A DNA stretch of 64,000 nucleotides, from positions 10,611 to 74,610 of the forward strand of contig CAYSRJ010000014.1 in the NCBI GenBank assembly GCA_964433545.1, written 5' to 3'. Below, in pieces: positions 3,486-59,931 of the stretch (position 1 is its first letter; every line of letters begins with the position of its first letter). The translations under genes and the position numbers were made by a program. The notes under the pieces were generated by a model. That model made no database searches. It was not told the origin of the DNA and saw only the letters and a list, made by a program, of their open reading frames with translations. Origin of the DNA: an uncultured Spirochaetota bacterium (lineage in GTDB: Bacteria; Spirochaetota; B62-G9; DRHN01).

Positions 3486-4414
3486 CAGGGTGTATTCACG
3501 AATGATCTTTCCTGTTGCTGGGTTTATGGTCTTCTTGGGTCACAACTCATAGTATAGTCTTTGATGAAATAAACTTGGCTTAAGTTACTCTTTCGATCGA
3601 AACGCCTTTTTGATGACACACTTTTAAGCTTTTTACAGGGGCATTTCTTTACAATGAAATCTCAGAATCATTGCACTTTTAATAAGTAATTCGATATCAT
3701 TTTAATTGCATGGATATTACCAGTCAATGAGAAACAACCCCGTATAGATCTTTTTCACAATCACACATGACCGCTTCCAGCCACCGCACTTCTCCCGGAA
3801 AGTTGGTGGCTTGAAAATGTTTTTCTTGCAGCAGCCAGGTTTCCTACCTATAATGTACCGTAGAATAGAGCAGTAATTTGTGACAACTGTGATGAATCTT
3901 TCATTTCAGAAAATGTATCTCGGGAAGTCATGAAATTGGCAGAAAAAGGAGTAATAAGTAGAGGTATTGAGATTGAAATACTCAACTTTGCGGCATAATT
4001 TAATGAAACTTGAAAATAATCGACTTCTCAGGTTGTAATTTACTGGATTTTTTGCCTAAAGAGGTGCGTGTTTCAGGGTATTCATTTTCCCAAGCTGCCT
4101 CCTGAGAACCCACGACGTTGGAATCTCCCTTGGTACTGTTTCAAGAAATCGTGCGCAATCAGGGATACCCAATAACTCGTTCAAGATAACGAGGAAGCCT
4201 GCGTGATCCATGAGGTGCGAAGATTTGATATCCAGGGCAAGAGATATCTGGAATTGTGTGGAAAACACTACATGAATGATCTATGTCTCCGGCATGGATT
4301 TGCAGGATTTACTGATAGGGATACTTCCGGTATTCTTGAGATTGTGGTATATTTCGAATTACTTGCGCGCAGATTTAAGATTAGTATTGGAAGTCTTTAA
4401 AATAAAGAGGTCGA

Positions 4415-4912
4415 TTGATTATGGGTATCATTGAAATATGCGGCTATGTTCCCGGAGCAATAGGTCGGGTGACAGCGCTGCATGCGCTCTACTACCATAA
4501 AAACTGGGGTTTCGGACTGTATTTTGAAGCAAAAGTCGCCAGAGAAGTCGGGGAGTTCTTGAGCCGTTTCGACGAAACGGCCGACGGCTTCTGGACAGTT
4601 TGCTCCAAAAATGTAGTTGAAGGCTCGATTTCGATTGACGCTATCAATGCTGCAGATGAAGGAGCACACCTCAGGTGGTTTATTCTGTCTCCAGAGCTAC
4701 AAGGTCGTGGGTACGGCAATAGACTTATGGAAAGAGCGGTCTCTTTTTGCCGGATGAATGGGTATAGATCAGTCTACCTCTGGACATTCACGGGACTTGA
4801 TGCCGCAAAACATATCTATGATAAGTTCGGTTTCAGAATTGTGAAGCAGGAAAAAGGAACGCAGTGGGGAAAGGAAGTCCTCGAACAGAAGTATGTATTA
4901 CGACTGTCCTGA
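4415..4912 (+). CDS. GNAT family N-acetyltransferase
   Basis: 165 aa. Acetyl-CoA-binding motif LQGRGYGNRLM and a C-terminal FGF..V segment typical of GNAT. Confidence 0.7.
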   Translation: MIMGIIEICGYVPGAIGRVTALHALYYHKNWGFGLYFEAKVAREVGEFLSRFDETADGFWTVCSKNVVEGSISIDAINAADEGAHLRWFILSPELQGRGYGNRLMERAVSFCRMNGYRSVYLWTFTGLDAAKHIYDKFGFRIVKQEKGTQWGKEVLEQKYVLRLS

Positions 4913-5089
4913 TTTATCCTGTCTATCGTACAAGTCCGGTTTTACGGCATTATGTGATATCTGGTATCACAGGCGATCACAGAAAAAACGCGGGAAATTG
5001 GGATTCGTGGATCATTTGTGGATGGGTTGTCCGAGGAACGTCCATGTTCGGCCCAAAACATGGAAGGTCAAGACGCGGTCGGCTCCCCA

Positions 5090-5770
5090 CTATTGAAATA
5101 GAGACGGTACAAAAGCAATGCTTTGTATAATATGAGTGTGTTGTTCCTTTGATAGTTGTTCGGCAGTATGGGCGCCCGACAGCACGGCTATATTCCAGCG
5201 CACTCCTGCCTTCCAGCCGGCCTGCAGGTCGAGCGCAGTATCTCCGATGTTCGCAACCTGTCGTATATCGATGATCTCCGCTAGCTCCATTGCCCGAAAT
5301 ATCATAAATGGAGCAGGGCGGCCGCGGGACACGTCCTCTCCGCAAACGACTGCATCAAATACATCATTTTTCCAGCCTGAACTATTAAGAATAATTTCCA
5401 CGATGGATCGATCGAATCCCGTATTAAGCGCCGCTTTTATACCGTGTTCGCGAAGCCATTTGAATGTTTGTGCAGCTCCGGGAACAGCACGCACACCCTG
5501 TTTTAGATAAGTGCCCGCCAATCGGTTATTAAAATCCTTGTAAATCGTTTCCATTAAATGAATGGTATCTTTCCGCCTGTCTGGATAAGAGACGGAGATC
5601 AGACTGTGGATTGCTTCTCTCTTTGAAGCTCCTCGGAATTTGCGTATATCTTCATTGGAGACATTAATTCCACATGCGTTCAGCGCGGCAATAAATGCGG
5701 CAGGAACCTGCCCGTTGTCTACTATCGTCGTCCCGGCCAAATCAAAGATGATTAACCGAATATCGTCCAT
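5090..5770 (-). CDS. PhnX-like HAD hydrolase (phosphonoacetaldehyde hydrolase family, short form)
   Basis: FDLAGTTIVD nucleophile motif. Segments DVSRGRPAPFMIFRAMELA and IGDTALDLQAGWKAG resemble PhnX DVPAGRPYPWMCYKNAMELG and VGDTVSDMKEGRNAG. Confidence 0.55.
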   Translation of the reverse strand: MDDIRLIIFDLAGTTIVDNGQVPAAFIAALNACGINVSNEDIRKFRGASKREAIHSLISVSYPDRRKDTIHLMETIYKDFNNRLAGTYLKQGVRAVPGAAQTFKWLREHGIKAALNTGFDRSIVEIILNSSGWKNDVFDAVVCGEDVSRGRPAPFMIFRAMELAEIIDIRQVANIGDTALDLQAGWKAGVRWNIAVLSGAHTAEQLSKEQHTHIIQSIAFVPSLFQ

Positions 5771-5936
5771 GAATACTCAGGGTCTCTTGTAGGATGCCAT
5801 TTTTATATAGTGTTGCGATGGTGGTCTCCTCCTGGAAAACGGAGGAGCTTCAATTATTTTAACCACCTGGATGAAATAGTATCGTATTTCTTCCATTTCC
5901 ACAAATTAAAAGTGGTGTATGCTCTCCTTGGGAAAG

Positions 5937-5964
5937 TCCCTGGCGGGATGTATCCCTGGCGGGA
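5937..5964. promoter_or_regulatory. tandem direct repeat TCCCTGGCGGGA-TGTA-TCCCTGGCGGGA in the divergent phnX-like/deoR intergenic region; candidate regulator-binding site
   Basis: Exact 12-mer duplicated with a 4-nt spacer, seen directly in the sequence. Confidence 0.3.
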
Positions 5965-5977
5965 CTGAATATTAAAA

Positions 5978-6002
5978 AGTAACTTTTATGAAGTTACTTA
6001 GA
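5978..6002. repeat. REP/MITE-like palindromic element copy (AGTAACTT-ttatg-AAGTTACT-TAGA)
   Basis: 8-bp perfect inverted repeat with a 5-nt loop. Same core as the copies at 7058, 39297, 53647, 53706 and 58047. Confidence 0.6.
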
Positions 6003-6178
6003 TGTATATAGGTTTTTAATCAACAATATTAGGTGATGGAGGGGGCGGAGCCATATTGGAAACAAAACTGGCGCAGGATAAGTAATGATGAGAGGGTGGT
6101 GATGAAGTTCAGGCAGTGTTTTTTTGTCTTTATCAATGGAGATTGGATTAAAGATTCAGAAATATTCAAAATAATTAC

Positions 6179-6206: not shown

Positions 6207-6246
6207 TCAATAATATACATTATAAATTCTTCCTTTGGAAAAGTTA

Positions 6247-7062
6247 ATGCCTTCAGGTCTTATTCCTGCTGATAGGCAAAAGCGGATTTACGATCTCCTC
6301 CGCGAACAGGGTGTTGTCAAAGTCAATGAAATTAGTAAACTATTAGGTGTATCCGAGTTAACTATCAGAAGGGATCTCGATGTATTGGAAAAAAAGGAAA
6401 TCCTCGAGAGAACACACGGCGGGGCGATTTACAATCAGAGAATGCCGGTAGAGCCTCTCTATGAGCAGAAGCATAGGCTGCACAAAGAGGAAAAAAAAGC
6501 AATTGGACGGTATGCAGCAGAACTTATAGAAGACGGTGATACTATTCTGATTAATAGTGGTTCTACAACGCTGGAAGTAATCAACAATCTTCGAAATAAA
6601 AGCGTGAGAATCATTACAAGTAATCTTGGTGCTATATATAAATCCGTAGAAAGTAAATTTGAGCTTATAATGCTTGGAGGTTTATTTCGTTCACAATCAA
6701 ACTCCCTCGTTGGTGAGTTTGCTCAGATTTTGCTTAAACGTGTATACGGTGCAAAGACAATTATAGGCGTTGATGGTTTCAGCATAAAGTATGGACTGAC
6801 TACTCCTGTACTTGAAGAAGCGGGCATTGCCAATAAGATGATTGAATCTACGCTGGGGATGGTCATAGTCGTAGCTGATTATAGTAAATTAGGGGTTGTA
6901 TCAAACTTTGTTTCTGCACCAATAAATAAGGTGAATGTTCTGGTTACAGATGATAAGATAGATGACGAGTATCGAAATAGCCTCGAGGAGATAGGAATAC
7001 GGGTAGTGGTTGCATCCTTAAATGTGGCCAAAGCCACTTCGCGGCCGAGTATCAAACAGTAA
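6247..7062 (+). CDS. DeoR/GlpR family transcriptional regulator
   Basis: N-terminal HTH (RQKRIYDLLREQGVVKVNEISKLLGVSELTIRRDLDVLE) and C-terminal DeoR sugar-binding domain. The last 8 codons and the stop codon lie inside a repeat element. Confidence 0.8.
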   Translation: MPSGLIPADRQKRIYDLLREQGVVKVNEISKLLGVSELTIRRDLDVLEKKEILERTHGGAIYNQRMPVEPLYEQKHRLHKEEKKAIGRYAAELIEDGDTILINSGSTTLEVINNLRNKSVRIITSNLGAIYKSVESKFELIMLGGLFRSQSNSLVGEFAQILLKRVYGAKTIIGVDGFSIKYGLTTPVLEEAGIANKMIESTLGMVIVVADYSKLGVVSNFVSAPINKVNVLVTDDKIDDEYRNSLEEIGIRVVVASLNVAKATSRPSIKQ

Positions 7063-7086
7063 CTTCGCGAGAAGTTACTCAGAAGC
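7037..7086. repeat. REP/MITE-like element copy (CTTCGCGGCCGAGTATCAAAC + AGTAACTTC-gcga-GAAGTTACT + CAGAAG)
   Basis: 9-bp stem with a 4-nt loop. The left arm is near-identical to 53623-53646 and 37395-37410. The TAA inside AGTAACTT is the deoR stop codon. Confidence 0.65.
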
Positions 7087-10305: not shown

Positions 10306-11159
10306 TACGTACTTTGCCGAACACAAAAGTATATTTAACAGGCTTCAGGATTTTCATAATACTTTATTTTATATTTCTATTTTCACCTCTTTTAGTAACC
10401 ATGGTTCTTGCATTCAATGACTCAATGTTTCCTTCTTTGCCATGGAAAGGCTTTACACTCTCGTGGTTTTTAGGCAAAGGTCCGGACAAAATCGGTATTT
10501 TTCATGATGCGATCAATTTGCGGAGTATTTTTAATTCCTTCAGGGTTGCAATTGCCGTTACCATTCTTTCTACAATTGTCGGGACAATGGCAGCATTTCT
10601 CTTTGAGCAGGAAGATTTCAAGTTTAAGAATATTCTCTATTTCCTCATGCTCGCTCCCATGGTTATACCGGGAGTTATTTTAGGTATATCCCTATTAATG
10701 TTTTCCACTGCTGTGGGTTTGTTTTTTGAAAATGCATTTGGTTGGAATATTAAGATGTTGAGTCCGGGTATATGGCTTGTAGTGATGGGCCAGTTTTCAT
10801 TTATTACCACCATTGTAGCATTGTTTGTTTCTGCACGGTTGAGGAAATTTGACAGAACGCTCGAAGAAGCTGCGTACAACCTTGGGGCAACCAGATTAGA
10901 AGTAATATGGTTTATTACATTGAAGTATCTACGTCCCTCAATTATTGGCGGAGCTGCAGTTGCATTCCTGATGTCCTTTGAGAACTTCAACACAACATTA
11001 TTCCTTGTTGGTTCTGACGCCACCCTGCCCATAAATCTTTACCTGCAAGTACGAGACGGATCAACCCCTGTTATAAATGCGATTGCATTACTGCTCATTA
11101 TTACCACTTCCACCTTAGCAGTTACCAATCTTTATCTGGGTAGAAAGAACCATGAGTGA
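10302..11159 (+). CDS. ABC transporter permease, PotC/PhnV-like
   Basis: EAA-like motif EEAAYNLGATRLEVIWFITL. ATGA overlap with the upstream permease gene. Confidence 0.8.
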   Translation: MIRTLPNTKVYLTGFRIFIILYFIFLFSPLLVTMVLAFNDSMFPSLPWKGFTLSWFLGKGPDKIGIFHDAINLRSIFNSFRVAIAVTILSTIVGTMAAFLFEQEDFKFKNILYFLMLAPMVIPGVILGISLLMFSTAVGLFFENAFGWNIKMLSPGIWLVVMGQFSFITTIVALFVSARLRKFDRTLEEAAYNLGATRLEVIWFITLKYLRPSIIGGAAVAFLMSFENFNTTLFLVGSDATLPINLYLQVRDGSTPVINAIALLLIITTSTLAVTNLYLGRKNHE

Positions 11160-37268: not shown

Positions 37269-37445
37269 GAACCTTAGAAGTGGTGTGAATCCCCCCGGGG
37301 AATGACATTTGCGGGACGTGCCATTTCGAGGTCGATCCTTGACAGGGCTCGGTATCACAACTATCTTAATAAAAGTTACTTAGAAATGGAACCATTTCGC
37401 GGCCGAGTATTACAACTATCTTAATCCAAGGTACTTAGAAACAGC
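37269..37445. repeat. degenerate composite copies of the REP/MITE-like family in the convergent gcvPB/HDAC intergenic region
   Basis: CTTAGAAG at 37273. CCCCCCGGGG box at 37291. AAGTTACTTAGAA at 37373. TTTCGCGGCCGAGTAT at 37395. Direct 16-mer duplication CACAACTATCTTAAT at 37356 and 37412. Confidence 0.5.
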
Positions 37446-38505
37446 TCCAGAACTCCCTTTGAACACCCGAAACCTGATTGATTATCAGGTCGACATCCTG
37501 CCTGCGTCTGACACTGGGTTGTTCCGGAGAAACGTCATCTCTCTCACCGTTGAGGCGCAGCAAAACTTTTTTTACACTTTCTCTCAATGCCTCGAGGTTG
37601 TACCCTCCTTCGAGGGAGAGCAGTAGTTTCCCGTTCGCCGTGCTTTCTGCTGTATCCATTACTACACCGGCGAGAGAGGCGAATCCATCGGTTGTAACCT
37701 CCATTCCACCCAATGGGTCTTCGTAGTGGGCATCAAATCCTGCGGATACGAGCACGAGTTGCGGCCTGTACAGCAGCGAAATGGGTTTGAGCACTTTTTC
37801 AAACAGGGTTACGTATGCGTAGTCTCCGTATCTTGGTCCGAGAGGAATATTGACGGTGAACCCTCTGCCCCTTCCGCTTCCGGCTTCCATGACATCACCG
37901 GTTCCCGGATAGTAAGGGTATTGATGAATTGAAAAATAGAGCACCCTGTCATCCGAGTAGAAGGAATGCTGTGTACCATTACCATGATGAAGGTCCCAAT
38001 CGACGATAAGCACCCGTTCGAGCGCGTGATTCCTGATTGCATGTTCTGCGCCGACTGCGATGTTGTTGAAGATGCAGAAGCCCATGCCTCTGTTTGCCTC
38101 CGCATGATGGCCGGGTGGGCGAATAAGCGCAAAGACATTGTCACACTCTTCATTCATCAGTGCGTCGATACCACGCAGAACACCTCCTGCAGCGTAGAGG
38201 GCTGCTTCGAAAGACTTTGCAGAAAGCTGGGTATCCATATCGAGGGACGAATAAGGGATGCCTTCTGTCATAGCCACCTGTTCATAATATGCAGGCTTGT
38301 GGTTATACTCAATCTCCTCCTTTGTAGCCTTCCTGGGGGGAAGGTATTCGAGCTTTCCCGATATGTCTTTATCTTCAAGCATATCATAGAGAACCTCGAG
38401 CCGGCGGGGACTTTCCGGATGCGGCGGTCCAGTTTTGTGCTCGATAAAAATAGCGTCTTTCACGACTCCTGTCATAGGCACCCTCCTGACCATGAAGACA
38501 CACAT
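37435..38505 (-). CDS. histone deacetylase-family protein (acetoin utilization AcuC / acetylpolyamine amidohydrolase-like)
   Basis: HDAC motifs RPPGHHA, DWDLHHGNGTQ and GFD. The true start may be the internal Met (MTGVVKD, 38475). Confidence 0.75.
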   Translation of the reverse strand: MCVFMVRRVPMTGVVKDAIFIEHKTGPPHPESPRRLEVLYDMLEDKDISGKLEYLPPRKATKEEIEYNHKPAYYEQVAMTEGIPYSSLDMDTQLSAKSFEAALYAAGGVLRGIDALMNEECDNVFALIRPPGHHAEANRGMGFCIFNNIAVGAEHAIRNHALERVLIVDWDLHHGNGTQHSFYSDDRVLYFSIHQYPYYPGTGDVMEAGSGRGRGFTVNIPLGPRYGDYAYVTLFEKVLKPISLLYRPQLVLVSAGFDAHYEDPLGGMEVTTDGFASLAGVVMDTAESTANGKLLLSLEGGYNLEALRESVKKVLLRLNGERDDVSPEQPSVRRRQDVDLIINQVSGVQREFWSCF

Positions 38506-39170: not shown

Positions 39171-39296
39171 CTTTTGCCTCCTGTATAATGAATTATTTCC
39201 TGTTTTTCACAGTGTGGGCCGGAATTTAGATTCCCTCGGGCGCTGGCAGTGTAACGCTCAGTTCAATGTATGAATACAGAGTCAGCGGCACTGTTG

Positions 39297-39345
39297 AGTA
39301 ACTTCTCGCGAAGTTACTTTATGATATTCGGTCCCCGGGTACGTA
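39297..39345. repeat. REP/MITE-like element copy in reverse orientation (AGTAACTTC-tcgc-GAAGTTACT then TTATGATATTCGGTCCCCGGGTAC)
   Basis: The reverse complement matches the second module of the 53682-53727 copy, including the CCCCGGGGAC box. Confidence 0.6.
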
Positions 39346-39512
39346 AACCACTTTTAAGTAAATTGTTACACCAAAAAGCTGAAATTGCAATTGTATTATA
39401 TGCGGGAAAAAAAGAGGAAAATGATGTAATGTATGTAGGGTTTACAGTGGGGTTCTTTCTCTTGCGGTCTCACACGGGATTTATTATAATAGGCAGAAAA
39501 TGGAGGAATAAA

Positions 39513-47990: not shown

Positions 47991-48090
47991 AAGTCTCGTT
48001 TCTTTTATCTGCCCGGAAAATTTGAAGTATTGTGAATTTATCGGAGTGTATTGCAAGATTCCCAATCAGGATTAAAATCGGGGATGTGAA

Positions 48091-53578: not shown

Positions 53579-53622
53579 GCGCACCGGTGTAGAAATTCTG
53601 TATTTTGCCGATATAAAAGCGG

Positions 53623-53735
53623 CGGCTTCGCGGCTGAGTATCAAACAGTAACTTGTTCGAAGTTACTTAGAAGCGGCATACGTCCCCGGGGACCGAATAT
53701 CATAAAGTAACTTCGTGAGAAGTTACTTAGAAGAA
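53623..53735. repeat. full-length composite REP/MITE-like element with two hairpins and a central GTCCCCGGGGAC box
   Basis: GGCTTCGCGGCTGAGTATCAAAC. AGTAACTT-gttcg-AAGTTACT-TAGAAG. GTCCCCGGGGAC (53682-53693). AGTAACTTC-gtga-GAAGTTACT-TAGAAG. Confidence 0.65.
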
Positions 53736-55307: not shown

Positions 55308-56324
55308 TCACAAAGGCTTGAACCTTTCGCATGATTCTCTTACCACCAGTATCGGTTCGAGTAATATTTTTTGACCCTTTTCTTTGACCTGTTTAATGCC
55401 TTTAAGAAGCATGTTAACTGCAATTCTTCCTAGTTCTTCGAGGGGTGTTGCAATTGTCGAGATTCGAGGTGTTATTAGATCATCAATAAAAATGTTATCG
55501 TAACCCAATACTGAGATGTCCCGGGGTACTCTCAGATTGAGTTTATTAAATGCTTTTATTGAACCGATTGCCATCATATCATTGAATGTAAATACTGCAG
55601 AAAAACTCAGCCCCTTTTCTATTGCATTAATGACAATATTATATGCGGATTCAATGTCATATTGGCCTTCAATGATGAGGTCCTGTTTTATTTCAATGTT
55701 ATTGTCTTCCAAGAAATCCATGAATCCTTTTAATCTGTTCTGTGAGGATCCACGCGACAAAGGTCCTGTAATAACGAGAATTTCTCTATGTCCTAAGTTG
55801 AATAAATAACGGGCCCCCTCGTACCCACCTTTGTAATCATCCCCTATTATTATATCGCTTTCAAAATTTGATATTTCCTCATCCAATAAGATCACTCTTA
55901 TTTGCGGCGGTACAATTGATTTGATTTTATCTCCCATGAGACCAGTACTGCACAACAGAATGCCCGTTACTCTCTGTCCAATTAAATGCCGTAAATAATC
56001 AATTTCTCTCCTTTTATCAGAATTGGTGTTGCAGATGAGTGTCATGTACTCATTATTGAAACATTCATTTTCAATGGCTTTTCCTAATTGGGCGTAATAT
56101 GGATTTACATTATCCGGAAGTATTACACCGATGACATTCGATAATCCGCGACGCAGACCAGACGCAAGGGCATGGGGTGTATAGCCGGTTTCATCGATAA
56201 TTTTCTTGATACGTTCGTATGTCTCGGTACTCATATTACCTTCTGTATTGTCGTTGAGGACTCTTGAGACAGTTGCAGTAGATACCTTCGCCAGTTTAGC
56301 AATATCTTTGAGTGTTATTGACAT
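55308..56324 (-). CDS. LacI family transcriptional regulator
   Basis: HTH ITLKDIAKLAKVSTATVSRVLN plus a sugar-binding domain. Confidence 0.8.
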   Translation of the reverse strand: MSITLKDIAKLAKVSTATVSRVLNDNTEGNMSTETYERIKKIIDETGYTPHALASGLRRGLSNVIGVILPDNVNPYYAQLGKAIENECFNNEYMTLICNTNSDKRREIDYLRHLIGQRVTGILLCSTGLMGDKIKSIVPPQIRVILLDEEISNFESDIIIGDDYKGGYEGARYLFNLGHREILVITGPLSRGSSQNRLKGFMDFLEDNNIEIKQDLIIEGQYDIESAYNIVINAIEKGLSFSAVFTFNDMMAIGSIKAFNKLNLRVPRDISVLGYDNIFIDDLITPRISTIATPLEELGRIAVNMLLKGIKQVKEKGQKILLEPILVVRESCERFKPL

Positions 56325-56528
56325 TTTTGCGCAAAACCCTTAAACGTTTTCCTAAAACGTTTACTAGACTATCTCAGATATTAAATATAGTCAATATTTT
56401 TAAAGAAATAGTAGAGATATTACGAAATTTTTTTAAAGATTACTACGGTATTATGTAGCTGAAAATCTGTTTATTTAAAAATCGAGTGGAATTTAGGAAA
56501 TATAAGTTTATAAATTTCTCAAAAATGC

Positions 56529-56588
56529 TTGACAATATGTTTTTAAAAAATTAAAATGACGATTAAACGTAATCCTTTACGTTAATCG
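56529..56588 (+). promoter_or_regulatory. promoter TTGACA-17-TAAAAT followed by a 29-bp near-perfect palindrome (CGATTAAACGTAA-tcc-TTTACGTTAATCG), candidate LacI-family operator
   Basis: The palindrome overlaps the predicted +1, upstream of the sugar SBP gene and divergent from the LacI gene. Two AAACGTTT palindromes also lie at 56341-56365. Confidence 0.4.
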
Positions 56589-56609
56589 ATTAAGTCATAG
56601 GAGGAAGTT

Positions 56610-57962
56610 ATGAGGCAAAAGATCTTACTGTTTTTTTGTGTATTTGTTATTCTGATGTTCAGTATGGGTATACTCTATGCGGGGAGCAATAAGAAAGCTG
56701 AAAAATCCTCATCGGGTAAACCATATGAAGGTGTAACTTTACATCTTCTTATGGAGGATGTGCCTGATACCACGTCAATCGAACCCCTGCTGCCTGAATT
56801 CGAGGCTCAAACAGGCATTAAAGTCGTTTTTGAAAAGGTTGTGTATACGGTTATGCACGATAAACTGGTACCGCAGCTCATGGCCGGTGAAGAAGGTGGA
56901 TCTTATGATGTTCTCGAGTGTGACAACTACTGGGTAGGTGAGTTTGTTATGGCGGGATGGCTACGACAGATCGACGGCTATTTAAATAAGACGCCTGAAG
57001 TTGATTTAAATAATTACCTGGAATCTGTTGTCGAAATGTTTACGGTAGGTGATAAAAAATATTTTGTCCCGATGTGGACATACCCAATGGGGATCGTGTA
57101 TCGGACGGATATCGTCAATGATCCGAAATTCCAGTCTTTTTATGAAAAGGAAACAGGCAAGTCCTGGGAATTTCCGCCAAAAGACCTGTTTGAATATGCA
57201 GAAATGGCAAAAGTTGCAGAAAAGTATACCCCGGACGATATATACGGTGTTGCTATGCAGGGAGCAAAGATAGATCCTCTTGTAATGGAGATTACAAACT
57301 ATCTTTTTGCATTGGGCGGCGATTACTACAATAGAAATACCTGGAAAGCAACTTTTGACAGCCCGGAAGGCAAAGATGCACTTCTAGTCTATAAGGACCT
57401 TCTCAACAATGCTGCCCAGCCAGGGGCAAGTGGTGCAAATTTTGATGATGCATTCAATGTCTTCGGTCAAGGAAAGGCAGTCTTTGCAATTACGTACAAC
57501 TTTCTTATGTCCTGGTTGCTTGATGAAAACAACAGCGTAGTGTATGATAAAGTAGATTTTATACCGCTGCCCGGTGGCGGGCTACTTGGAGGTTGGGCGT
57601 GGGCTGTCCCTGTATCCTCACCGAATCCTGACGCTGCCTGGGAGTTCATCAAATGGGTTGAGACAAAAAAAGTCCAGAAGGCACGGGCAATGGACGGTGG
57701 TATGCCAACAGCCAAATGGATTTATGATGATCCTGAATTCCTCGAAAAATACAAGTATCAAAAGAGGGCGAAGGATATTCTTTTAACATCAAAACCGGTG
57801 CCAATTATATCACAGTCGACCCGGATGGTTGAGATCATTGGTGAGGCTTCTTCAAGTGCAATAATCGGTGATATTTCTATCGAAGAGGCATTGAAACAGG
57901 CTAATAAGAAACTGAATGAGATCGTTGTTGATGATCCTCTTGTTGAGATGCAGAAAAAGTAA
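56610..57962 (+). CDS. sugar ABC transporter substrate-binding protein (family 1, CUT1)
   Basis: Signal peptide. SBP_bac_1 fold. RBS AGGAGG. Confidence 0.75.
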   Translation: MRQKILLFFCVFVILMFSMGILYAGSNKKAEKSSSGKPYEGVTLHLLMEDVPDTTSIEPLLPEFEAQTGIKVVFEKVVYTVMHDKLVPQLMAGEEGGSYDVLECDNYWVGEFVMAGWLRQIDGYLNKTPEVDLNNYLESVVEMFTVGDKKYFVPMWTYPMGIVYRTDIVNDPKFQSFYEKETGKSWEFPPKDLFEYAEMAKVAEKYTPDDIYGVAMQGAKIDPLVMEITNYLFALGGDYYNRNTWKATFDSPEGKDALLVYKDLLNNAAQPGASGANFDDAFNVFGQGKAVFAITYNFLMSWLLDENNSVVYDKVDFIPLPGGGLLGGWAWAVPVSSPNPDAAWEFIKWVETKKVQKARAMDGGMPTAKWIYDDPEFLEKYKYQKRAKDILLTSKPVPIISQSTRMVEIIGEASSSAIIGDISIEEALKQANKKLNEIVVDDPLVEMQKK

Positions 57963-58040
57963 CGTGGTAAGATAAACTGTGGGCGTCTTATTTTTCAACA
58001 CGATGAGACGCCCGCATAAAATAAAAAAAATGTATGCCAG

Positions 58041-58067
58041 CTTCTAAGTAACTTCGGGCAAGTTACT
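58041..58067. repeat. REP/MITE-like element copy, reverse orientation (CTTCTA-AGTAACTT-cgggc-AAGTTACT)
   Basis: 8-bp stem. CTTCTA is the reverse complement of the TAGAAG tail. Confidence 0.6.
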
Positions 58068-58147
58068 GTTTGGTACTCGGTTCCGCCAGGGATACATCCT
58101 GTCAAGGACGTACAAAGCTTTTAATTACATCGGTGGATTTATATTCA

Positions 58148-59032
58148 ATGAGAAATAAAACTGTTTTACAGAGGGTTTTTCAATTCAAATACACCATGAT
58201 TTACCCTACGATTTTCATCCTGCTTCTGGTTATAGTGGCTCCGCTTGTATACTCCTTTTATATAAGCCTCCATAAATACATCCTACAGTTTGGTATCGGG
58301 AAATGGGTCTATTTGAAGAACTACTTGAATGCATTTCAAGATAGGGAATTCCTTATATCAATGAAGAACACATTTATTCTAACTTTTTCAGTTGTTACAC
58401 TTGAGTTCCTCATTGCTCTCGGAACAGCTTTACTTCTGAATCGTGATGATCTGAAAGGGAAAACTTTTTACACTATAATTCTTATGATTCCTGTTATGAT
58501 GCCTCCGATTGCAGTCGGCTTGATATGGAGACTTCTCCTTCAACCCGACCTTGGAATTGTCAACTACGTACTTGGCCTTTTTGGAGCCAAAAGCTATGGT
58601 TGGTACGGCGATCCCAAGCTTGCCATGCTTACGGTAATCAGCGTTGACGTGTGGCATGAAACATCTCTGATATTGATAATTATTCTTGCGGGATTGACTA
58701 GCCTCGATAAAACCCCCTATGAGGCAGCAAGGGTGGACGGTGCTTCAGGTTTCCAGACGTTTTTTTATATAACACTTCCGATGCTTGCGCCGGTTCTTAT
58801 GGTTGCAATTTTGATCCGGATGATAGCCGCCATTAAAACGTATGACTTAATATATATACTGACTCGAGGCGGACCTGGTTTCAGAACGGAAACGATGAGC
58901 TTCTTTGTGTATAAAAAAGCATTCAGGGAATTAAGTATGGGAGATGCGTCTTCTCAATCTTTTATTCTTTTAATCATTATTTTAATTTTCAGTATCGTCC
59001 TATTGAAAGTAATGAATCGGCAGGAAACATAA
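58148..59032 (+). CDS. sugar ABC transporter permease (MalF/UgpA-like)
   Basis: BPD_transp_1 with an EAA-like loop (YEAARVDGASGFQTFFYITLP). Confidence 0.75.
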   Translation: MRNKTVLQRVFQFKYTMIYPTIFILLLVIVAPLVYSFYISLHKYILQFGIGKWVYLKNYLNAFQDREFLISMKNTFILTFSVVTLEFLIALGTALLLNRDDLKGKTFYTIILMIPVMMPPIAVGLIWRLLLQPDLGIVNYVLGLFGAKSYGWYGDPKLAMLTVISVDVWHETSLILIIILAGLTSLDKTPYEAARVDGASGFQTFFYITLPMLAPVLMVAILIRMIAAIKTYDLIYILTRGGPGFRTETMSFFVYKKAFRELSMGDASSQSFILLIIILIFSIVLLKVMNRQET

Positions 59033-59097
59033 TTTGATAAGAAAACCCCTGTTGAAATGACAAAAACCGGCCGGGAGGAGTTGAGAGGATAGTTCTT

Positions 59098-59931
59098 ATG
59101 ATAAATTACAGACTGAAAAAGAAGGTATCGTTATCTCTGGTACATCTGATACTCATCATTGAATGTCTGATAGTAATCCTGCCTATTCTGTGGATTTTCC
59201 GAACCTCTCTCGTGCATCGCGTTTTGGCATATCGTATTCCACCGAAGTGGATTTTTATTCCAACATTAGAAAACTACAGTGTTATCTTTAAAGAAGAGCC
59301 ATTCAAGCTATTTTTTGCAAACAGCATCATTGTGGCTGTGTCATCAACGCTGATCTGTCTGGCAGTCGGCGCTCCTGCTGCTTTTAGCTATTCCAGATTT
59401 AAAACTGGGGGCAACGCACTGGTTATAGGAATACTGTCAACACAGATGCTCCCTCCGATTACTCTGGTTATTCCGTTTTTTCTCGTATATAAAACAATTG
59501 GACTATACAACACAAGGATAGGCCTTATAATTACATATATCACATTCAATATACCATTTATTATCTGGATATTAATTGGGTTCTTTCAGGGTGTTCCAAA
59601 AGAATTAGAAGAAAGCGCTATGGTTGATGGCTGCAACAGGTTTACAGCTTTTATTCGTATTATACTGCCGATTTCCCTTCCCGGCATTCTCTCCGCTGGT
59701 GTGTTCAGCTTTGTTCTATCGTGGAATGAATTCCTCTTTGCTCTGATACTAACCGGTAAAAAAAGCAAAACACTTCCTGTCGCGGTATCAGGTTTGATAA
59801 CCCAACAGGGTACCCAGATCGGCGCTGTATGTGCGGCAGTTATATTAATAATTCTTCCCATGGTGATACTCTATTTCGGTCTTAGAACCTTTCTTATAAA
59901 GGGTCTTGTTGCCGGAGCAGTGAAAGAATAG
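59098..59931 (+). CDS. sugar ABC transporter permease (MalG/UgpE-like)
   Basis: EAA-like loop (EESAMVDGCNRFTAFIRIILP). Confidence 0.8.
   Translation: MINYRLKKKVSLSLVHLILIIECLIVILPILWIFRTSLVHRVLAYRIPPKWIFIPTLENYSVIFKEEPFKLFFANSIIVAVSSTLICLAVGAPAAFSYSRFKTGGNALVIGILSTQMLPPITLVIPFFLVYKTIGLYNTRIGLIITYITFNIPFIIWILIGFFQGVPKELEESAMVDGCNRFTAFIRIILPISLPGILSAGVFSFVLSWNEFLFALILTGKKSKTLPVAVSGLITQQGTQIGAVCAAVILIILPMVILYFGLRTFLIKGLVAGAVKE

Follow-up and report, generated by a model that had tools for sequence, protein, structure and literature searches.

What are the small palindromic repeats that recur at six places in a 64,000-nucleotide stretch of spirochaete DNA, and how might they have come to lie there? 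The stretch, hereafter the window, comprises positions 10,611 to 74,610 of contig CAYSRJ010000014.1, from an uncultured Spirochaetota bacterium. The original prediction, made from the letters of the window, described them as a dispersed family of the kind represented by repetitive extragenic palindromes (REPs) or miniature inverted-repeat transposable elements (MITEs), rather than as terminators. Small hairpin repeats such as REPs are common, and the mode of spread is known for very few families. In the comparisons with related sequence reported here, the copies behave as mobile DNA, present in one genome and absent from the corresponding site of a relative. We consider that they probably represent a small, non-coding and non-autonomous mobile element with hairpin ends, which would be moved in trans by a strand-specific nicking enzyme and which behaves like REP-like elements or derivatives of insertion sequences (IS) of the IS200/IS605 type.

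That the repeat is real is clear from its frequency. Six exact matches to AGTAACTT-N4-6-AAGTTACT are present in the window, compared with 0.00 expected from dinucleotide-preserving shuffles, and the 3' arm together with the tail that follows it, AAGTTACTTAGAAG, is found eight times with up to two mismatches, compared with 0.37 expected. Repeat finding joins the loci of the window through stretches of 37-68 nt that are 81-95% identical, and a covariance model trained on 39 units and run on the whole window with filters off returned the six loci originally proposed and no others. With unit boundaries set by the comparison of filled and empty sites and by tandem junctions, the window contains eight units (U1 to U8, Table 1) at these six loci, or about one locus per 10 kb. 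The six copies are thus present as first described, and the view of them as a genuine dispersed family occurring in both orientations is borne out by the shuffles, by the covariance-model search and by the count of at least 120 independent sites considered below.

Insertion sites and the architecture of the unit

The evidence for mobility comes from sites that are filled in one genome and empty in another (a caret marks the point of insertion or, in filled sites, the limits of the inserted DNA). Contigs that encode the exact MurJ of the window are found in JGI marsh-sediment metagenomes, and a GTDB representative metagenome-assembled genome (MAG), with contigs CAZGJW01 and the label uncultured Spirochaetota, matches parts of it at 83-97% DNA identity. 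At the U1 site, this related MAG (L038) reads AAATTAAAAG^AATATAG where the window reads AAATTAAAAG^TGGTGTATGC...AAGTTACTTAGATG^TATATAG. The site of U3 and U4 is empty in two relatives with 77-81% HDAC identity (L101 and L102), which carry ...CCTAAAAA^CAGCTCC (TAAAAA^CAGCTCC) in place of CCTTAGAAG^TGGTG...two units...CTTAGAAA^CAGCTCC, such that the flank resumes exactly past the array. The same two relatives lack U5 and retain the native sequence that precedes it, AATTTACTTAAAAG, as AATTTACTCAAAG in L102 and AATTTACCTAATG in L101; in the window this sequence matches the element's own end in 11 of 14 positions. Its 14 nt, at 39351-39364, have the look of a second, decayed hairpin of the element but are native DNA, kept in relatives without the element. 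In a relative of 87% identity (L096), both U6/U7 and U8 are absent, and the corresponding spacers measure 18 nt (184 nt in the window) and 107 nt (185 nt in the window).

Similar differences are seen at other sites. Marsh contigs provide a four-unit array of 259 nt in L127 with its empty counterpart, GATAATGTAAG^GTGAGCA (GTAAG^GTGAGC), in L176; a two-unit array in L125 corresponds to an empty GTCAGAAG^AAGCCG in L112; and exactly one 60-nt unit, TGGCTTATG...TTAGAAG, stands behind an existing unit in L033 and is missing from L114. At 48049/48050, where the window itself is free of the element, a 99-nt insertion in two related sequences (L084 and L001) reads CATAAG^CGGCATACGTC...AAGTTACTTAGAAAG. 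At 7.0 kb the window has one unit, U2, and the related MAG has two, a difference of 76 nt. Gain and loss of copies thus take place between relatives with a DNA identity of 80-97%. None is present in about 21 kb of syntenic DNA from relatives with 72-89% MurJ identity, a stretch that in the window holds three units at two loci, and relatives with 77-89% protein identity have no copy at the corresponding positions. Variants of the strain found in the marsh have the same alleles and add nothing to the comparison.

The junctions follow a simple rule. Empty sites end in ...TTAAAAG^, TAAAAA^, CTCAAAG^, GTAAG^ or CAGAAG^, and of 22 left flanks of first array units, read by eye, 17 end in AAG and 21 in G. 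Insertion occurs in a single orientation, directly 3' of a T/A-rich heptamer that has AAG as its last three bases (TTAAAAG, TTAGAAG, TGTAAG and similar) and resembles the element's own 3' end. The heptamers on the left and right of a unit differ (TTAAAAG and TTAGATG in the case of U1), and there is therefore no target-site duplication. Arrays consist of two to four units, all head-to-tail, and the junction between units is always TTAGAAG^YGGC. Since the preferred target is itself copied at the end of each unit, the next can land exactly behind it, and head-to-tail arrays result.

Alignment of more than 100 copies from the window and related sequence reveals a unit of about 55-105 nt. It opens with YGGCNTAY, continues with at least one GC-rich hairpin (P1) and then the linker CGARTATCAWAM, and closes with a second hairpin that is AT-rich (P2), followed by TAGAAG. 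P2 has the form AGTAACTT-loop-AAGTTACT, with a conserved 8-bp stem and a free loop of 4-6 nt, and is flanked by AWAM on its 5' side and by exactly the six bases TAGAAG on its 3' side. The onset of P1 is about 9 nt from the left end, and P2 stops 6 nt before the right. The two ends, YGGCNTAY... and ...AAGTTACTTAGAAG, are non-complementary, and the unit is therefore without terminal inverted repeats.

The two hairpins are conserved in different ways. In P1, pairing is kept and sequence is variable: 79 distinct helices were counted over three groups (examples of stems are GTCC/GGAC, GTTCC/GGAAC, GTGGC/GCCAC, CCCGGGC/GCCCGGG and CGCCCC/GGGGCG), and in an alignment of spirochaete and Syntrophales units, three of the five pairs show compensatory changes, with 82% of cells paired. 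This test was made on a subset alignment with a manually specified structure because RNAalifold, applied to all clades together, recovered P2 only, the longer P1 of the Desulfobacteraceae being misaligned. P2 is invariant in the spirochaete and Syntrophales alignment, which says little because every locus was fetched by the P2 sequence. In decayed copies, on the other hand, the 5' arm drifts (to GATAACTT, or to ACTATCTT as in both U3 and U4) with no compensating change, whereas AAGTTACT-TAGAAG is kept. Constraint on the unit is strongest in its 3' arm and tail, which thus appear to be read as sequence.

This architecture differs in part from that first proposed, in which the composite at 53623 was the master form, with other loci carrying subsets of it, a CCCCGGGG box was an optional separate part, and a left arm TTCGCGGCYGAGTATCAAAC was a part in its own right. 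The composite is instead two complete units, U6 and U7, placed head-to-tail, and arrays elsewhere reach four. The box proved to be the P1 of U7, one case of the variable GC-rich hairpin that every unit contains, and the left arm is the P1 hairpin plus linker of a second unit subtype.

Longer forms also occur. The GC-hairpin module may be repeated in tandem within a unit, for example GGGATACATCCCCCC three times over, in which case units exceed 140 nt; such tandem modules were seen in L160, L173, L060, L127 (1507-1647) and U1 of the window. Desulfobacteraceae MAGs (L018, L023, L035 and L059) have in common, at 87-90% identity, a non-coding composite of about 285 nt (an example is L059 1320-1612 on the minus strand). 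Preceded by TAAAAAG^, it opens with CTGTTTATCC and a GC hairpin, includes a stem of some 20 bp (DNA fold z = -3.75), and has a standard unit at its end.

Distribution, proposed mechanism and rival explanations

Exact-pattern scans of genome and metagenome collections, as the original prediction had suggested, gave many more copies. Loci were taken from the matches listed, and with orthologous copies merged, the window and loci L007-L087 and L103-L182 (about 1.2 Mb in all) contain at least 120 independent sites, 117 (97%) of which lie outside long open reading frames (ORFs). Among the matches listed, and with taxa named by their depositors' MAG labels, the same architecture is present at more than 35 loci of the related spirochaete MAG, in several Desulfobacteraceae MAGs from independent studies, with the tail CAGAAG in Syntrophales, Smithella and Syntrophus MAGs, and in MAGs labelled Desulfuromonadales, Oryzomonas and Candidatus Schekmanbacteria as well as low-GC contigs of unknown origin. 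Some care is required with such labels: a 545-bp contig of a "Bacillota" MAG (L072) is identical, element included, to part of a Syntrophus contig (L015) and is likely to be a binning contaminant, which shows that binning errors occur and that taxon labels resting on a single hit need caution. The family is found in some lineages and missing in their close relatives, one 14-nt sequence is identical across distant phyla, and the occurrence of the same architecture in phyla so distant implies horizontal spread. The exact pattern gave no match in viral contigs, and the unit sequence gave none in the plasmids of PLSDB.

No consistent direction or company was found for the copies. Relative to co-directional flanking genes, 28 sites have the same and 24 the opposite orientation. 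Divided post hoc, and with small numbers, multi-unit arrays are 10 same and 4 opposite and single units 11 and 14; with respect to GC skew, the arrays are 12 concordant and 4 discordant and the single units 15 and 26. An apparent replication-strand bias of 22:13 in the first sample was gone when 120 de-duplicated sites were considered. An all-against-all BLAST of 1,361 ORFs from the genome loci revealed no partner gene, the only cross-taxon matches being to generic families (response regulators, AMP-binding enzymes and ABC ATPases). Genes that lie between inverted copies (EtfB, rubrerythrin, ilvC-leuA) are housekeeping genes.

A mechanism that would account for the junctions can be proposed. 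In essence, P2 would be the hairpin recognized, and TAGAAG the nick site behind it, for a nicking-joining enzyme that is strand-specific and provided in trans. The likeliest candidate would be an HUH-type single-strand DNA transposase of the IS200/IS605, RAYT (REP-associated tyrosine transposase) or IS91 kind; HUH enzymes make use of a hairpin with a nick site behind it in a similar way. Such an enzyme would make one cut after the AAG of the left flank and another after that of the right end, freeing the segment between, and the released strand would be rejoined after another AAG-ending site, with P1 serving as the second structural end.

Several observations weigh against this reading and are gathered here. 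In about 1.2 Mb of element-bearing loci, which are not complete genomes, no HUH/Y1 transposase or RAYT was found with weak probes, namely phmmer searches with three sequences (IS200, IS608 and E. coli RAYT) and an HUH...Y pattern, applied to two ORF sets. No copy was found in these loci with an ORF between its left and right ends, the only long variants being non-coding, and a megablast search for multi-copy segments of more than 250 bp revealed no IS, only orthologous blocks and the 285-nt Desulfobacteraceae composite. No IS608-like guide pairing is apparent: the four bases 5' of P2 vary (ATAA, AAAC, TAAC, GTTG, AAGG) and the tail stays GAAG, so pairing between guide and cleavage site is not evident. 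Folding energies of the top and bottom strands showed no asymmetry of the kind (a G-U wobble signature was sought) that would point to a single-stranded intermediate. There is no concordance with GC skew at TAGAAG-type sites (27 concordant, 30 discordant); the corresponding figures for CAGAAG-type sites are 16 and 8, all on loci of 4-14 kb, in which skew is a noisy proxy. The left flank of Syntrophales-type units, at filled sites only, is WTAG and not AAG. Finally, the 99-nt indel at 48049/48050 and the U6/U7 region exceed the size of the units that they contain, from which it follows that deletion and recombination also shape these loci. The same is indicated at 7.0 kb, where the single unit of the window has the loop of the second unit of the MAG; the difference between one and two units is, on the sequences, best explained by the loss of a unit through recombination between AGTAACTT hairpin arms.

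The last point raises the question of whether arrays and copy differences arose mainly by slippage, or by unequal or hairpin-arm recombination of a pre-existing repeat, and not by new insertion. The loop exchange at 7.0 kb is what recombination between the AGTAACTT arms predicts, and the tandem GC-hairpin modules within units and the indels larger than a unit are in keeping with it. Such processes cannot, however, seed unoccupied and unrelated sites, and yet empty AAG-target sites are seen at six loci or more; nor do they account for at least 120 dispersed sites or for the same element in different phyla. As the main source of the pattern, they therefore appear very unlikely. Smaller still is the probability that the hairpins are intrinsic terminators or the operator sites of a single regulon. 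Several copies do lie just past stop codons (U2, U3/U4 and U6), but the hairpin is not followed by a T-tract, no unit was called terminator-like, both orientations occur, and some copies sit in divergent promoter regions; for operators, the 4-6 nt variation of the loop does not fit the binding of a dimeric protein, and the neighbours are unrelated housekeeping genes with no families in common and with orientations divided as given above. This explanation is already contradicted by the results, and in rejecting terminators, the original prediction was right.

A different possibility is that the units are selected functional elements, such as RNA stabilizers, processing or attenuation signals, translational modulators or protein-binding sites, and that their mobility is secondary. 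P1 pairing kept by compensatory changes across phyla, the identical 14-nt sequence in distant phyla, the many copies that lie within operons or directly 5' of AGGAGG-ATG, and the sense leaning of multi-unit arrays (10 to 4) are all consistent with a function. Against it, the overall division of orientations, 28 to 24, does not favour roles as mRNA stabilizers or attenuators, orthologous sites are empty in close relatives that have the same genes, no neighbouring gene family is held in common, and the strands show no asymmetry in folding energy. Rfam 15 gave no match in the window at the gathering score, permissive searches with the units (E up to 10) gave chance-level miRNA and snoRNA matches only, and a scan for tRNA and tmRNA found none. 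We regard this explanation as distinctly improbable.

We also think it unlikely, if somewhat less so, that this is a classical family of REPs and bacterial interspersed mosaic elements (BIMEs), or of REP doublets forming hairpins (REPINs), generated and kept by a domesticated RAYT, present in one copy and with repeats on either side of its own gene. Abundant extragenic palindromes in both orientations, with relatives that differ in copies, are what such a family would give, and some REP families have been described that possess no dedicated transposase (PMC3733652). The units, however, have no conserved GTAG or CGTC tag beside the conserved hairpin; they cluster head-to-tail, with no head-to-head or tail-to-tail dimers and no alternating orientation seen; and they combine two different hairpins with defined, asymmetric ends. 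The search for a cognate RAYT, recommended with the original prediction, found no RAYT-like ORF in the 1.2 Mb chosen for containing the repeat, and no RAYT flanked by repeats was seen in the fetched loci, among which there is no complete genome.

A further, doubtful but conceivable, explanation is an undescribed transposition system: a self-targeting element of about 60 nt whose right end is its own preferred target and whose mover is no recognizable IS200/IS605, RAYT or IS91 transposase. In that case, the mover might be a nicking-joining protein that is encoded by the host, or domesticated in some other way, and is common to bacteria of anaerobic sediments. If true, it would also explain why the 14-nt end is identical in Spirochaetota and Desulfobacterota. 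A limited search of Rfam and of the searchable literature on the motif, and on repeats in these taxa, found no description of the family.

On balance, we favour a small element that would be mobilized in trans by a strand-specific nicking enzyme. The junctions are unusually clean, with oriented insertion after an AAG-ending motif, no duplication, and the growth of arrays by exactly one unit. Together with the fast turnover between comparable relatives and the occurrence in uncultured spirochaetes as well as sulfate-reducing and syntrophic Desulfobacterota, this makes a search for the enzyme, by comparison of carriers with non-carriers, a tractable one. There are also practical consequences. 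The units break metagenome assemblies, as seen from the many Desulfobacteraceae copies that sit at contig ends, they shift predicted starts and stops (HDAC, DeoR-like and FecR-like genes), and they could be used as strain markers.

The units of the window and their neighbours

Table 1. Units of the repeat in the window, with flanking and unoccupied sites
Feature	Position	Strand	Length (nt)	Make-up and surroundings	P2 and tail	Covariance model (bits)
U1 left flank	5906-5912			TTAAAAG, directly 5' of unit		
U1	5913-6004	+	92	starts TGGTGTATGC; GC-hairpin module x2 (5938-5967); then TGAATATTAAAA	AGTAACTT-TTATG-AAGTTACT; tail TAGATG	47.4
U2	7025-7085	+	61	P1 GTGGC-CAAA-GCCAC; then TTCGCGGCCGAGTATCAAAC	AGTAACTT-CGCGAG-AAGTTACT; tail CAGAAG	65
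U3	37281-37386	+	106	long variant; several GC hairpins; follows CCTTAGAAG (37272-37280)	degenerate 5' arm ACTATCTT, 3' arm intact; tail AAGTTACTTAGAAA	
U4	37387-37441	+	55	head-to-tail on U3; TGGAACCATTTCGCGGCCGAGTATTACA; repeat family D5	degenerate hairpin; tail TAGAAA	
U5	39291-39350	-	60	TGGTTTAC, GTACCCGGGGAC, CGAATATCATAA	AGTAACTT-CGCGAG-AAGTTACT; tail CAACAG	74.7
Native target of U5	39351-39364	-		AATTTACTTAAAAG; directly 5' of U5; mimics element 3' end AAGTTACTTAGAAG; outside element		
Element-free site	48049-48050			occupied by a 99-nt insertion with one unit in the related MAG (L084) and in one contig from the marsh (L001)		
U6 left flank	53613-53619			ATAAAAG		
U6	53620-53673	+	54	CGGCGGCTTCGCGGCTGAGTATCAAAC	AGTAACTT-GTTCG-AAGTTACT; tail TAGAAG	
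U7	53674-53733	+	60	head-to-tail on U6; CGGCATAC, GTCCCCGGGGAC, CGAATATCATAA	AGTAACTT-CGTGAG-AAGTTACT; tail TAGAAG	86.2 (best score)
U8	58041-58117	-	77	CTTTGTAC; GC hairpins (GTCCTTGACAGGAT..., CCCTGGCGG); AACCGAGTACCAAAC	AGTAACTT-GCCCG-AAGTTACT; tail TAGAAG	44.3
U8 target flank	58118-58124 (plus-strand coordinates)			TTAAAAG; U8 lies 3' of flank		

It had been claimed that all copies are intergenic or at gene 3' ends. They are indeed mostly extragenic, but two of them (U1 and U5) are situated in divergent promoter regions, and two others (U2 and U4) overlap stop codons. The stop codon of a DeoR-like ORF (6235-7062), TAA at 7060-7062, is inside the U2 hairpin. The HDAC ORF (37435-38505, minus strand) now ends in U4 and, as a result, encodes 356 amino acids, 10 more than the 346 of relatives without the element. 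In marsh contigs, a FecR-like gene is called with its start inside U5 (region 39321-39512 of the window), giving 410 amino acids compared with 345-346 in relatives; this N-terminal extension through U5 is probably due to a mis-called start. U8 is antisense to the ABC-transporter genes that flank it.

U3 contains TTGACA-N17-TATCTT (37339-37367), which matches the sigma-70 consensus in 10 of 12 positions. A recurrent variant of the unit with the module GATCCTTTACAGGAC (L036, L038, L046, L061, L074 and L082) contains TTTACA-N18-TAACTT; here the 5' arm of the conserved hairpin doubles as the -10-like hexamer. Judging from such hexamers, some units may carry an outward-facing promoter. Effects of this kind on the host, whether through stop codons, sites beside ribosome-binding sites or promoter-like hexamers, are probably incidental.

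Other features lie close to the units. In the related MAG (L038), positions 4211-5722 encode a protein of 503 amino acids, the gene for which is deleted in the window (at about 6040-6110), beside the polymorphic U1 site. It was considered as a candidate transposase and rejected: its N terminus is a Cys-rich Zn-ribbon, and it belongs to no Pfam or NCBIfam family. The operon at 55308-59931, which encodes a LacI-type regulator, a sugar-binding protein and permeases and which holds U8, is missing in L098 and L100; in L098 the aminotransferase gene stands directly after MurJ, and in L100 the gene after MurJ is that of the PfkB kinase. Between the stop codon of the binding protein and U8 (57980-58035) lies a GC-rich hairpin, GGGCGTCT...AGACGCCC, and after it an A-rich run. 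This is kept in a relative without U8 and is therefore probably a genuine intercistronic structure of the operon. Elsewhere in the window, ATAAACTTGGCTTAAGTTACT (3569-3589) resembles the conserved hairpin with two mismatches and is without GC hairpin, linker or TAGAAG tail; it is probably unrelated, or possibly a target-like sequence.

Comparison with known systems

Elements of the IS200/IS605 family and the ends-only palindrome-associated transposable elements (PATEs) that they mobilize in trans have no inverted repeats, cause no duplication, insert 3' of a specific sequence of 4-5 nt, and carry subterminal hairpins (PMC7290912); in the IS605 elements of Halanaerobium, the left and right hairpins can differ in sequence (PMC7290912). 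The family described here resembles PATEs in each of these respects. It is without terminal inverted repeats or target-site duplication; it inserts in a fixed orientation, with a short specific sequence directly on its 5' side; its two subterminal hairpins, one near each end, are unlike; and its short non-coding copies are presumably moved in trans. It differs in that its target is longer, at about 7 nt, and mimics its own right end, which gives rise to precise head-to-tail arrays; in that its left hairpin is unconserved in sequence, with no covariation apparent between guide and cleavage site; and in that its units fall far below the usual length of PATEs. With the weak probes and loci described above, the search for a cognate Y1 TnpA found none, and, unlike IS200/IS605, the family has no overall replication-strand bias.

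With REPs, BIMEs and REPINs, the family has in common abundant extragenic palindromes in both orientations, often between the genes of operons, and a copy content that varies between strains and species. REPs associated with a RAYT are thought to be processed as single-stranded hairpins by the HUH enzyme, in which they resemble the mechanism proposed here. In what the two sources say of their arrangement, REPINs and BIMEs form head-to-head or tail-to-tail dimers and alternate in orientation (PMC2817692, PMC3733652). The arrays of the present family are direct rather than inverted or alternating, it has no conserved GTAG tag, and its unit, which has defined ends and two hairpins that differ from each other, is asymmetric; the 1.2 Mb of loci yielded no RAYT. 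REPs are, moreover, usually specific to a species or genus, whereas one hairpin sequence of this family is common across phyla.

CGTC-tagged REPs and the Rickettsia palindromic elements have no evident dedicated transposase and are reported from several phyla, Spirochaetes included (Di Nocera et al. 2013; PMC3733652). The present family is similarly palindromic and without an evident transposase of its own, and by analogy, it may be another REP-like case of this sort. CGTC is, however, found at the foot of P1 in some units only (TACGTCC, compared with TACATCC, TAAGTCC and CACGCCC) and is thus not a conserved tag, the conserved part being AAGTTACTTAGAAG, unlike in the CGTC-tagged REPs.

The absence of terminal inverted repeats and of target-site duplication also distinguishes the family from classical MITEs. 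Of the original REP/MITE-like description, the notion of a mobile, dispersed, extragenic repeat therefore stands, whereas defining features of classical REPs and BIMEs and of MITEs are not found.

Further parallels exist with elements of the IS91/ISCR/Helitron type (ISCR being IS common region elements). The insertion sites of IS91 adjoin a specific tetranucleotide (on one strand, GAAC or CAAG). Elements of this type have no inverted ends, cause no duplication and have a specific adjacent target; a subterminal hairpin lies a few bases before the 3' end, and tandem and truncated copies are known among rolling-circle elements. They are, however, kilobase-sized and encode a Y2 HUH protein, for which no gene was seen in the loci of this family, and to our knowledge, there is no established class of miniature derivatives, of about 60 nt, among them. 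The BOX elements of Streptococcus pneumoniae are extragenic and modular, a first module being followed by a variable number of repeated modules. The family resembles them in its modular build and extragenic location; the sequences are unrelated, and BOX has a distinct terminal boxC module. We know of no mobilizing enzyme for BOX elements and of no demonstration that they insert at a specific target.

The family thus works in a PATE- or REP-like manner and yet fits neither class as a member. It is set apart by the likeness of the target to its own end, by arrays in which units follow one another exactly head-to-tail, by the very small size of the unit, by longer composites with the same right end, and by an end sequence that extends across phyla.

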